This document shows, piece after piece, positions 7,801-13,800 of a stretch of DNA of 64,000 nucleotides. Each line of letters begins with the position of its first letter. Position 1 is the first letter of the stretch. Position numbers: made by a program. The stretch lies in NCBI RefSeq assembly GCF_036507355.1, contig NZ_AP027877.1; one strand, written 5' to 3'. This DNA comes from Escherichia coli (GTDB lineage Bacteria; Pseudomonadota; Gammaproteobacteria; Enterobacterales; Enterobacteriaceae).

Positions 7801-10800
7801 CCTTGCCTGAATGCCGGATGCGATGCTAGCGCATCTTATCCGGCCTACATTTATAGATCGGATAAAGTACTCGCGCCGCATCCGGCAATTTAGCCCATTA
7901 TCAGAACGAGTAATTTACGCCGACACCTGCATAATGGAATTTATCACTGTCTCCTTCGTCGTGATCCTGCCACTCAAACGCGTATTCCAGCGAAACGGAA
8001 AGACCATTCTGGAAATCATAACCGTAAAATAAACCCACACGGTTAAAATCATGGCCTTCACGTTCAATATCATCCTGCCAGTCCCAGTTACTCCAGCGAT
8101 CCAGCCCAATGCGCGTATACGGCGTCACCGAGTGGTTGCCGAGCGTCAGCGGCAAATAGGCGCGAATTTCTTGCGTGGAAAACTCACCGTTATTGCGGCT
8201 GTCGTCCATATTGAAGCCGCGCTCGAGATAATAGTTCACTCGCAAAGCAACCGTTTCGTTGAAGGTATATTGCAGACCTGTTTCCGTTTCGACACGGGTA
8301 TCAGCGTAACCGGTCGTGTTCAAATCGTTGGCAAATTTATACATCGACAACCAACCGTTGAAACGTAAATCGTCAGTCAGTTTCACATCCCAATCTGGCG
8401 CGATTTTCCAGCGCTGCATATTCGCCGTGTCTTTACCCGGTTCATCAACGTAGTGATAACCATAATTACGGAAACCGCCGGTCAGGCCGAAACTGAAATC
8501 ATCGCTTTCGAGGAACTGATAATGCACCTCCAGCTCCGGGCGATCAAACCACGTTCCACGTTTACCCGCGCTATAATCTACCGGCCCTTCCTGATAATAG
8601 GCCAAAGAAATTCTCCACGGCCCGTTGGCAGCATTAAAATAGACAGAAGGCTCCGCCAGCCCATTCATATCTTCGCCATAACCCTCGACGTTTTCTATTT
8701 CGTACATCGCGCCGATATTAAAGTGCCAGTCGTTTCTTTCCTCGGCCTGTGCGCAGGCCATTCCCGCACACATCACCAGTGCGGTACAGGGTAATAACTT
8801 TTTCATTATTGTTCCTTGTATTATCCTGGGGGAATGCCTTCCCCCTGTATTTAGCGAATTGCTATTTCCGTTTCTGCATCAAAGAAATGACATTTAGTCA
8901 TATCAAAATGAATAGTGATATTTTCTCCTGCATGATAATCATTTAACGCACCAGCACGGACCACTAACTCGTGCCCCCCAACCGTGGTGTAGAGCATAAA
9001 TTCCGCACCGGTTAATTCTGCCACGCTAATTTTGGCGGAAATGTTATTTTCCTCTTGCGCGTCCGGATGAATATCTTCCGGGCGTATTCCCATCACGATG
9101 GGCTTATGCAAACTTTCCTGTGTTTTCAGAACCGCTAATTTCTCTTCGGGAATGGTTAATTTAAGCGTTTCCGTAACGAATTTATCGCCATCGATCGTGC
9201 CGCGAATAAAATTCATCGCTGGTGAGCCAATAAATCCGGCAACAAACATATTCGCGGGTTGGTTATAAACCGTTTTCGGCGCACCTACTTGTTGAACAAT
9301 CCCGTCTTTCATAATCACAATCCGCGTCGCCATGGTCATCGCTTCGGTCTGATCGTGGGTCACGTAGATCATGGTGGTGTTCAGTTTCTGATGCAGCTTG
9401 CTGATCTCTGCGCGCATTTGTACGCGCAGCTTGGCATCAAGGTTAGAGAGCGGTTCATCCATTAAAAACACGCCCGCTTCGCGCACAATCGCCCGCCCGA
9501 GCGCTACACGCTGGCGTTACCCGCCGGAAAGCGCGCCCGGCTTGCGTTTCAGGTACTCACGCAGGCCGAGAATTTGCGCCGCCCAGTTCACCCGCTCATC
9601 AATCACCTCTTTGGCGATTTTTTGCATCTTCAGGCCAAACGCCATGTTGTCGTAGACCGCCATATGCGGATACAGCGCGTAGTTCTGAAACACCATCGCG
9701 ATATTGCGTGCTTTGGCTGGAACGTCATTCATTCGTTTGCCGTCGATCAACAGATCGCCGCCGCTGATCTCCTCAAGCCCGGCAATCATGCGCAGGGTGG
9801 TCGATTTACCGCAGCCTGACGGACCGACAAACACGATGAACTCTTTATCGGCAATTTCCAGGTTGAAGTCCTTCACCACATGCACCTGGTTATCGTAGAT
9901 TTTTTGAATATGTTGTAACGAAAGCTGAGCCATGTTGATTCCTTTGCTATACGTTTTGCCAGAAGGCCGATAACCGCGACCAGGTCAGGGAGTCCGTTGA
10001 AGGCAATAGTAATTGCGCCCCGGTTAAGCCCGCGCCGATCCCCACCGAGCGCATACCGCTGGCGTTAATGGCGTCAATGCCCGCCTGCGCATCTTCAATG
10101 CCGATACATGCCTGCGGCGGCACGCCCAGCCCGGCACAAGCAGCGAGAAAGATTTCCGGATCCGGTTTCGAGTTTTTAAGTTGGGAAGCATCCGCGCAGA
10201 AGGTGAAAAACTCGCGCAGCTCCAGCGCCGCTAAAATCGTCGGCGCATTCAGGGAGACGGAAGCCAGCCCTACCGGAATCTGCTGTGCACGGAGCTCTGC
10301 CAGCAAATTGCGAATACCGGGCAGCACAGCATTAACCGTCAGCTCGCGCAGTGAGTGGACGTAGAGCAGATTTTTGCGATACGCCAGTTGCGCCCGCTCC
10401 TGCGAGTTAAAGTCGCCCTCTTTGCCCCCGTATTGCAGAATGCGCCGCAGAGACTCATCGCGGCTAATCCCTTTTAGGGATTCGTTAAACTGCGCATCAA
10501 TGCTGATGCCAATTTCAGCGGCAATCTGCTGCCACGCCTGGAAATGCAGATGCGTGGTAGCGGTCCCATTGAAGGGCAAAATAAAATCAACCAAACAGAA
10601 AACAGATTCTTCAGCCACGGATATAAGCTGCCCGTTCAAACGCAGTGAAACGGGCGCAGAAGTTCGAATCGCAATACGCTGCGCGTCGAGCGTGACCTGT
10701 AATTCGCAGCCCTGCCAGAACAGAGGGAAAGACAACTGTTGCCACTGCTCCGGTAACGCCGGATTGAGATGTAATTCACCGTCACGCACGCTCACCCCGG

Positions 10801-13800
10801 CAAAACCCTGAATTGCCCCCAGCCAGATAGCGCCAGTTGCGGCAGCGTGGATACCATCATCACAACTATGCGGATCAGCACCAAGATCGATTTCAGTCCC
10901 CTCGCGCCAGAACTGATAACTTTGGGTCAGCAGGCCACAGCGTGCGGCAACAATGCCGTGGATTGCTTTACTTAATGACGAGTCGTGAATAGTGCGCGGT
11001 TCATAAAATTGCAGATTGGCAAGACACGATACCGCTGAGAACTGCTCCGGCAGCATGTAATTGAGCATCACCACATCAGCTTGTTTGAGGATCTGCATCT
11101 CGTTCACTTCTGCGCGTGAATAATCCAGCAGAATGGTTTGCTTCCCCGCCGCCGCTTTGTATTTAGCCAGATTAATCGCCGGCTTAGCCATAAACGAATC
11201 ATCCTGCGGCAAAACGCCATCGGGCTGCGTTTCTGGCATCCATAGCTCTTTGAGGAACATTTCGGCCCGATGGATAAACGCATCGTCGCTACAGCCGAAC
11301 TGGCGGGCAATATTCAGCGCCTGTTGAACGTTGTAGCGGGCCATATAGCTGGTGTATGCATTATTATTGACATGTTCGGTATATTCGTCTGGTCCAATAA
11401 CATCATGAATTTCCAGACGATCGTTAACTCTCACCGCGCGGCTAATCCAGAACTTTGCCGTCTCCAGAAGTAGCGCCATGCCTTCATGAGCAATGAAACT
11501 TTCATCCCCCGTTGTCTGCCAGTATTGAATAACCGCCCAGGCGATATCGGCGACCAGATGATGTTCCGCCTGCGCCGAGGCCACTTTTTGCCGCAGCCCG
11601 GTGCGAATGTTAATGGCGGCAAATTCCGGCGTCTCTTCTTCGCCGCTGCGCGCGCTTTCCCACGGAAATAGCGCGCCCTGCCAGCCATTGCGTCGCGCTT
11701 TCTCCTGCGCGCCAGGCAAGTTGTGCCAGCAATAACGCAGTAAACTTCGGGCAACCGTCGGATCGCTAAACAGATGAAACGGTAGCAAAAATACTTCTGT
11801 ATCCCAGAAAACGTGGCCTTTGTAGCCTTCGCCGGTTAAGCCTTTTGCCGCAATACTGCTGCGCTCGTCGTGGGCGGGCGTCATGATGCGCAGATGATAA
11901 AGTGCATAATCTAACGCTTGCTGATCGTGCGCATCGCCGCCGTTTACCGTGATACGACGTTTCTGCCACAACTGACGCCAGTTTTCTGTTGATGCTGCAA
12001 GAAGTTGGTCGTAACTCTGCTGCGCACACATTTCAAGCTGGCGAAGCGACGCACTGCCCCACTCGTCTAAAGCAGCTTGCCTGTCATCCCGCCAGTCGAT
12101 CCACACCCGTTTTTGCAACGTCACTGTCTCGCCTGCATGAAGCTGCGCACTGGTATGTTGCAGCAAACGGCGCTCTTTGGCGGTATAGCATTGCTGCACA
12201 TCACCGCTCACCTTACAGCAACAGCTGATGGCCACATCACTGCGTCCATCCTGGGTGGTGTAGATCCCCTGCATCAGATGCTGACCAAACACCCGCACCT
12301 GGGTTTCGTCGAGATGCTGGCGACCGTGGTTGGTTTGCGTGGCGTCGATACCTGTTGAAATCAGCACTGACGCGACGGCGTCCAGTGGCGTAATAGTGAT
12401 TTCCAGCGCAATGAGCGGCAGTTGGTCTGCCGAAACAAAGCGACGGCTGGCGATGGTGTAACCTGCGCCGTTGCTGGTACGCCAGACAACGTTGCGGCGT
12501 AATTCGCCACTGGCAAAGTCAAGCTCACGCTGCCAGGCTTCGTGGGATAACGAGAAAACCTCACCATTTATGGCAATCTCCATCCCCAAGATATCAGGCA
12601 GGTTCACCAGTTCGTTGATTTCACCTTTACCCGCCCGATGATACAGCCCCGCCAGATACATTCCTCGCGTCTGGCGCGTGTAATCTTCTTCATGGCTGGC
12701 GCGAAGCCCAAGATAGCCGTTCCCCTGCGCCATCAGCGATGCATACTTGTTCAGGGTATGCTGGCTGAAATGGGGTTCTGATAACGTTACTGGCCTGGTC
12801 ATAATTCCACACGCGTCCCTGTTTCTGCGGATTGATATAACGCCGCCACCAGTTGCTGGATGATGTACCCCTGCTCGGCGTCGGCTATCATCACGGGCTT
12901 GCCCTGTACGTGATTGATAAAGGCTTCCATGCTGCGCAAATGGCGGTTGTCGTCTGCCATTTCCCGTTGCATCAGCGTCATTAACTCACCGTTGTTATCG
13001 GTGTAGATATGTGCTGGAAACAGCGTCGCACCGGCTTTATCACCACAAAAGCTGACGTTCATAATCGACTGTTCGCGGATGTTGAGTGCAAATGACGTTT
13101 CCAGCCACAGAATGCCGATGTCGATCAGCGGGCCACCACCCTGCAGTTCTTTATTGGTAAAGACGCCCCAGCCGGGAACGCCGCAGCGACGCAGGGCGCG
13201 GGCGGTGGTAACGTAAATCTCTCCCAAAACGCCGTTGGTCACCTGTTCGCGCAGCTGTTGCGTATCGAGCGCAAAACGATGGTGAAAGTCGTAGGCCAGC
13301 ACCTTGCCCTGTTTGCGCGCGATATCGCACATTTCCCGCGCCTGTTCTGGCGTCATGGCGGGCGGTTTTTCGCACATCACATGGCAGCCCGCTTCCAGTG
13401 CCATCAGGGTATGTTCGTAATGAAAACGGTTAGGTGAGCAGACGCTAACCACATCAGGTTTCACCGCCAGCAGCATGGCCTGCGGATCGTCCCACACGGA
13501 TGCATTACCGTATTTATCTGCCAGCGCCTGCGCCTGGGAAAGGCAGCTGTCACAGACAGCCACCAGTTCCAGATCGTTGCGGGTGCAGTAGTACGAAGCA
13601 TGAACCTTATCCGCCACCTGGCCTGCGCCTATTATCGCGACCCGCAGCGGAGAGCTTGTCATTGCACTTTTCACAAAGACCTCTTAGCAGGTACGCAACC
13701 AGGCCAACGAATCACGGTACGCCTGGGCAGGATCTTCTGCCCGGATACGCCCTTCATACACCACATAACCCTGATAGTTATCGGCGCGCAGCTGTTCAAA

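Follow-up and report, generated by a model that had tools for sequence, protein, structure and literature searches.

We identify a fused open reading frame (ORF) that joins the kojibiose phosphorylase gene ycjT to the beta-phosphoglucomutase gene ycjU in the ycjMNOPQRSTUV-ompG operon of Escherichia coli. It lies within a 64,000-nucleotide stretch of contig NZ_AP027877.1 (NCBI RefSeq assembly GCF_036507355.1), hereafter the window. We propose that a 68-bp microhomology-mediated, slippage-type deletion arose in an ancestor of one rare E. coli lineage. Gone with it are the stop codon of ycjT, the region where translation of ycjU starts and the first 19 codons of YcjU, so that the two genes are fused in frame. 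Very probably, this repeat-mediated deletion both fused the genes and inactivated the beta-phosphoglucomutase (beta-PGM), and it belongs to a decay specific to this operon rather than to the making of a new bifunctional enzyme. The deletion would be one of several independent hits, alongside a 180-bp deletion in ycjS, a nonsense mutation in ycjV (Q139*), the substitution R358C in YcjT and, later, an IS1 insertion in ycjM. The allele has not previously been described and is of a very familiar kind.

The fused ycjT'-'ycjU ORF occupies 9947..12802 on the minus strand and appears in the ORF listing as one frame of 951 codons with an ATG start. A sequence-only reading of the window, silent on strand, had described this single frame across both genes, and the junction peptide that it quoted is found in the translation. 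It had also divided the product into about 750 GH65-like and about 200 beta-PGM-like residues, a division that Pfam, NCBIfam and the alignments uphold and refine to YcjT residues 1-751 followed by YcjU residues 20-219. Pfam matches on the 951-aa protein fall into three GH65 domains (residues 9-237, 298-660 and 672-728) followed by HAD-type hydrolase domains (748-921). The part unambiguously derived from ycjT (10555..12802, minus strand) is without its last four codons (QEDE) and the stop and carries D143V, L232R, W278L and R358C; the part derived from ycjU/pgmB (9947..10548, minus strand) encodes beta-PGM residues 20-219 and has neither motif I nor a start codon or ribosome-binding site of its own.

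Reference genomes keep the two genes apart. In K-12 MG1655, ycjT has 755 codons and ycjU/pgmB has 219, exactly the sizes that the sequence-only reading had given approximately, and the two genes overlap by 4 nt (ATGA). The closest reference, DSM 103246 (99.0 % identity), likewise carries separate ycjT and ycjU with an ATGA overlap. Alignment with the K-12 region shows reference genes that are contiguous but not in frame, ycjU being in frame +2 relative to ycjT in the references. The ycjT-ycjU span is 2,924 nt in the reference versus 2,856 nt in the window, so that the shortfall of roughly 70 nt estimated beforehand is accounted for by an alignment gap of 68 nt. The small deletion that had been suspected of fusing the genes and removing the YcjU N-terminus with its nucleophile motif is thus supported by alignment to two references.

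Across the junction, the alignment with DSM 103246 contains this single 68-nt gap and no further indel. In DSM 103246 the gap lies between direct repeats, with ACCaCGCATC to its left and ACCgCGCATC to its right (9 of 10 positions match, 6 nt exactly). The window keeps one repeat copy, ACCACGCATC, and the retained copy of the exact 6-nt microhomology CGCATC marks the deletion junction at 10549..10554 (minus strand) within the sequence AATGGGACCGCTACCACGCATCTGCATTTCCAGGCGTG. Judging by the sequence, repeats at both ends with one copy kept form the classic signature of short-direct-repeat slippage, and this signature points to a slippage-type mechanism. The left site in K-12 reads ACCAAACATC, so the better repeat is a feature of the allele group that contains the window lineage. 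On the ycjT side, the 68 nt comprised YcjT codons 752-755 and the stop codon; on the ycjU side, they comprised the Shine-Dalgarno sequence AGGAGG, the ATG and YcjU codons 1-19, including HAD motif I (FDLDGV). Because 68 leaves a remainder of 2 on division by 3, the rest of ycjU enters the ycjT frame. The deleted segment folds no better than its shuffled counterparts (z = +1.5), which gives no sign of hairpin-promoted slippage, and a consensus scan found neither a sigma-70-like promoter nor a terminator near the junction.

The missing motif carries the functional argument. In beta-PGM, the first aspartate of motif I is the transiently phosphorylated nucleophile and the aspartate two residues further on is the general acid/base; in the Lactococcus lactis enzyme these are Asp8 and Asp10. 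This enzymology of HAD proteins is reportedly treated by Lahiri et al. in 2003 and Dai et al. in 2009. YcjU D9 and D11 are the equivalents of these two residues, and both are among those deleted. Asp8 and Asp10 are described as the catalytic aspartates of beta-PGM (PMC5480424). The sequence-only reading had found no stop, no ATG in the YcjU frame and no DxDG at the junction, and the junction and six-frame searches bear this out: D-x-D-G occurs nowhere in the 951-aa protein or in the six frames of 10350-10750, and a HAD motif-I-like peptide occurs in no frame of the whole window, so that motif I is absent in every register. With the first beta-strand and both aspartates gone, no aspartyl-phosphate intermediate is possible, and the beta-PGM half is predicted from HAD enzymology to be catalytically dead. 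Beta-glucose-1-phosphate (beta-G1P) made by YcjT would then no longer be converted to glucose-6-phosphate, and the pathway would be broken; the functions of YcjT and YcjU are as published (PMC6599011, PMC11543891).

What remains of YcjU is otherwise well preserved. Its residues 20-219 are identical in amino acids to those of the closest-reference YcjU, and HAD motifs II (S/T), III (K) and IV (E/D-D) are present together with the helical cap domain, including GIEDAQAGI. Against TIGR01990, the NCBIfam equivalog model for beta-PGM, the fusion covers profile positions 13-187 of 187, as compared with 1-187 for K-12 YcjU. Structural matches begin correspondingly late: PDB 4g9b, a beta-phosphoglucomutase, is covered over chain residues 16-221, and alignments to chains of the L. 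lactis enzyme in the PDB begin at chain residue 9-14, that to 1lvh from residue 11, past both aspartates. With its own start codon and ribosome-binding site gone, the beta-PGM half can be produced only as a tail on YcjT. An internal restart giving a free HAD protein was considered and rejected, since the earliest in-frame start-like codon after the junction is a GTG at residue 826, no ATG precedes residue 917, and motif I would be gone in any event.

Single-chain GH65/beta-PGM proteins are common, which bears on whether the window encodes a functional bifunctional kojibiose phosphorylase/beta-phosphoglucomutase that channels beta-G1P between two active sites. When 1.84 billion representatives were searched exhaustively and without a profile, the best 150 matches included 57 proteins of at least 900 aa; the HAD domain is C-terminal in 42 of these, as in the window protein, and N-terminal in 13. 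Such natural chains are widespread, one of them aligns with the window protein from end to end at 49 % identity, and HAD motifs II-IV are intact in the window protein. Yet motif I, [FL]D[LCVW]DG[VT], is kept at the junction or N-terminus in all 55 natural fusions with a recognizable HAD domain and is found in no frame of the window; the remaining 2 of the 57 long proteins have no motif under this strict pattern. The window protein has in addition no linker, the first strand of its HAD core is gone, and other genes of the operon carry inactivating lesions of their own. We consider a working bifunctional enzyme extremely improbable. As read from its sequence, the window protein is a deletion-derived pseudo-fusion and not a member of the natural-fusion family. 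No characterized GH65-beta-PGM fusion was found in the part of the literature that was searched.

The phosphorylase half is a more delicate case. Its three GH65 Pfam domains (PF03636, PF03632 and PF03633), which correspond to the N-terminal, the central (alpha/alpha)6 catalytic and the C-terminal domain, are matched essentially at full length, it matches the kojibiose phosphorylase structure PDB 3wiq with E = 5.6e-115, and the FWDTE, GPDEY and HDSSLS motifs are present. We aligned 136 GH65 homologues of at least 690 aa and found that, among 53 columns conserved at 90 % or more, the window protein matches 50, equals functional K-12 YcjT in a further 2 and breaks one, R358C. Position 358 is Arg in 136 of 136 homologues, and position 232 is uniformly hydrophobic among them, where the window protein has Arg. 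Along with D143V and W278L, these two substitutions (L232R and R358C) are absent from both the closest reference and K-12. A review of GH65 enzymes lists the catalytic acid, the -1 subsite and the phosphate site, and an Arg equivalent to R358 is not among the listed residues (PMC11442529).

These observations leave some room for a partly functional product, in which the beta-PGM half is dead and the GH65 half is active with an inert 200-residue tail, able to split kojibiose-type substrates into beta-G1P and glucose and to catalyse the reverse synthesis as well. YcjT is short of just 4 C-terminal residues with its GH65 domains complete, 52 of the 53 conserved columns are conserved or identical to functional K-12 YcjT, and natural enzymes tolerate a C-terminal HAD domain. 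Set against this are R358C at an invariant Arg and the charge introduced by L232R at a hydrophobic position, as well as the chance that a HAD core without its first strand misfolds and destabilizes the whole chain. Substrate supply is doubtful given a truncated YcjV ATPase, and the IS1 insertion in ycjM of the window strain is likely to be polar on downstream genes. We hold residual phosphorylase activity to be possible, with the balance tilted against it.

The allele is real and rare. The identical 951-aa protein is in NCBI as HAV8407379.1 and HBM8674078.1, and BED22595.1 represents the same allele, called from a later start (M24), on a 4,643,937-bp contig. Independent assemblies encode the exact 951-aa product on 7 or more contigs, each 20-200 kb long; carriers include GCA_905398585.1, the third-party (TPA) assembly GCA_021425525.1 and a Logan assembly of SRR32181686. 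This answers, indirectly, the call of the sequence-only reading for confirmation in reads. Save for an IS1 found in the window only, the carrier loci are 99.97-100 % identical to window positions 1-23579. A deletion between short direct repeats that is absent from complete RefSeq E. coli genomes could in principle reflect a collapsed repeat or another misassembly at a short direct repeat. This was rejected: the exact product recurs on at least 7 contigs from different projects, the BED22595.1 allele lies on a contig of 4.64 Mb, and a repeat of 6-10 nt is far too short for assembly collapse. We give an assembly or sequencing artefact next to no chance, and the fusion is a genuine lineage allele.

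We gauged its rarity in 5,426 complete E. coli genomes, searched by megablast. The ycjT-ycjU region was matched in 4,993 of these, always in two pieces, and had no match in 433. A 38-nt junction probe, neither half of which could seed megablast alone, found the 68-bp deletion junction in 0 of the 5,426, whereas an adjacent control probe of equal length matched 4,952 genomes. We also looked for genomes carrying only the ycjS deletion or only the ycjT-ycjU deletion and found neither junction in the 5,426, again with a working control probe. No exact match to the 68-bp deletion junction was found in the species representatives of GTDB or in JGI metagenome contigs. Over the region, identity to the complete genomes does not rise above about 99 %, which means that the lineage is unrepresented in that collection.

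Damage is concentrated in this operon. In ycjS (12799..13674, minus strand), a 180-bp in-frame deletion leaves 291 rather than 351 aa and shortens the Gfo/Idh/MocA C-terminal domain by 60 residues; it too lies between direct repeats, with the exact core CGGCATTC retained at 13110-13117. The ABC transporter ATPase gene ycjV (8851..9933, minus strand) is interrupted by Q139* (CAA>TAA at 9517-9519) in its LSGGQ signature motif. Both lesions are also present, by gene calls, in the other assemblies of the lineage. The IS1 in ycjM (18918..19685, within ycjM at 18610-21066 on the minus strand) is flanked by a 9-bp target duplication, CGTTCAGTT, at 18909-18917 and 19686-19694. It is found in the window strain only and is missing from the otherwise 99.97-100 % identical assemblies (loci L003-L005), which makes it a very recent, strain-specific insertion atop the lineage-wide lesions. 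Intact in the operon are ompG, ycjN, ycjO, ycjP, ycjQ and ycjR. In all, damage affects 5 of the 11 operon genes and 1 of the 47 genes in the flanks (Fisher p = 5e-4); with lesions clustered in the operon and the flanks almost all intact, the decay is operon-specific. The sole broken gene among the 47 checked outside the operon is mpaA, which encodes a murein tripeptide amidase (155-883, plus strand) and carries Q85* (CAG>TAG, stop at 407-409), identically in L003.

We infer that the decay of the operon was neutral. A different account would have selection shut the ycj pathway, for instance to keep dead-end beta-G1P from accumulating once a first hit had occurred, or to alter expression of the YcjW regulon or OmpG, and the concentration of lesions in the operon would suit it, as would the independent ycj lesions elsewhere in E. 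coli and the absence of the locus from 433 of the 5,426 complete genomes. Those other lesions include the ycjV frameshift of K-12, an internal stop in ycjT of 19SZHZ713Rt and a split ycjT in ABW_A19. Neutral decay after a first lost step, however, predicts identical clustering, and ompG and ycjN-R are intact, so we think an adaptive loss improbable. In minimal medium with kojibiose as the only carbon source, K-12 reportedly fails to grow (PMC6599011), which fits a dispensable operon.

Several points weigh against reading the fusion as an inactivated relic in a decaying operon. The fusion scores 234.5 bits against TIGR01990, above the cutoff of 189.4, and the absent motif is the single ground from which we deduce that activity is lost. 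Ratios of nonsynonymous to synonymous divergence (pN/pS) relative to the closest reference are 0-0.09 across the operon genes; they give no signal of long-term relaxed selection, so that decay is not independently visible in the substitutions, and we read them as a sign that the genes were inactivated recently compared with when the lineage diverged. Finally, the deletions in ycjS and across ycjT and ycjU each preserve the reading frame, which could be chance (about 1/9) or could reflect selection against polarity on ompG and other downstream genes.

The upstream breakpoint lies at a repressor site. An internal operator for YcjW, a LacI-type repressor, is retained at 10555..10568 (minus strand) as the 14-mer TGGGACCGCTACCA, and an identical 14-mer forms the intact primary operator upstream of ycjM at 21079..21092 (minus strand); the operator sequence was taken from the electrophoretic mobility shift probe LL58 in the supplement of PMC6599011. 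K-12 has the same 14-mer 16 nt ahead of the ycjU ATG, within the 3' end of ycjT, a position that matches the YcjW chromatin immunoprecipitation peak reported "between ycjT and ycjU" (PMC6599011). In the wild-type arrangement, both operators stand about 14-16 nt upstream of a start codon (ycjM and ycjU). The internal operator forms part of the coding sequence of ycjT and specifies the residues NGTAT. The deletion begins at the base directly 3' of this operator, and the upstream repeat shares the operator's last 4 nt. It is pure speculation that repressor binding contributed to slippage. The notion that YcjW bound at the intragenic operator was a replication or transcription roadblock that provoked slippage, or else that the dead HAD domain binds beta-G1P without turnover in a working phosphorylase, strikes us as very unlikely. 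Were the roadblock real, deletions that fuse genes would concentrate locally at intragenic operators of the LacI family.

Other features of the window are recorded here for completeness. Synonymous divergence (pS) from DSM 103246 is mosaic over 7901-15542, with values of 0.007 in ycjU, 0.037 in ycjT, 0.08 in ycjV and 0.21 in ycjQ, a pattern that indicates past recombination inside the operon. A second IS1 at 63371-64000 is 100 % identical over 630 bp to the ycjM copy, is inverted and is cut off by the right end of the window; its position is that expected for the ymiA-cysB interval, and cysB was not seen in the window. With 44 kb between them and opposite orientations, the two IS1 copies could promote an inversion. 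Between sapF and fabI, positions 39378-46870 hold an efflux cluster of MFS, outer-membrane factor, RND permease, adaptor and TetR genes. Coverage of at least 80 % of window positions 25001-50000 was found in 994 of 5,422 matching genomes, which suggests that this cluster is accessory in E. coli.

The significance of the fusion is mostly practical, and it touches no long-standing open question. It is an annotation trap, passing the beta-PGM cutoff though the catalytic aspartates are gone. That score above the equivalog cutoff is the reason for the NCBI name of the 951-aa protein. Pipelines name it differently, as "beta-phosphoglucomutase" or, with the start at M24, as "glycosyl hydrolase family 65", and neither of the names under HAV8407379.1, HBM8674078.1 and BED22595.1 flags a fusion or a pseudogene. 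A metabolic reconstruction of the lineage would wrongly credit it with beta-PGM and probably also with kojibiose phosphorylase. The allele is a further indication that E. coli can dispense with the ycj operon, which decays repeatedly through differing lesions. It also offers a natural contrast, an accidental fusion that mimics a widespread architecture without the one motif that all natural fusions keep.

Comparison with known systems places each element of this account. Natural fusions share with the window protein the arrangement of GH65 N-terminal, central and C-terminal domains followed by a HAD-IA beta-PGM domain in one chain. The closest parallel, WP_082676271.1 from Shouchella shacheensis (970 aa, named "beta-phosphoglucomutase" by NCBI), aligns to residues 5-950 of the window protein. 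Natural fusions differ in having a linker and an intact motif I, whereas in the window protein the GH65 C-terminus is joined directly to the residue after motif I. K-12 ycjT (b1316) and ycjU/pgmB (b1317) share about 98 % nucleotide identity with the window, as well as the operon, the gene order and the internal YcjW operator; there they are two ATGA-overlapping genes, where the window has 68 bp fewer and a single 951-codon ORF without YcjU 1-19.

The deletion itself resembles the known RecA-independent deletions between short direct repeats, a source of pseudogenes and fused genes in bacteria, with its endpoints in repeats and one copy kept, and the 180-bp deletion in ycjS of the same operon has the same repeat signature, there with 8 nt exact. 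Measured against such events, nothing about the 68-bp deletion is unusual except that the final 4 nt of a repressor operator fall within its upstream repeat. The K-12 ycjV/ymjB pseudogene is, as in the window lineage, an independent inactivation within the ycj operon. In K-12 the lesion is a frameshift near the 3' end of ycjV, whereas the window lineage combines Q139* in the ABC signature with the deletions in ycjS and across ycjT and ycjU.

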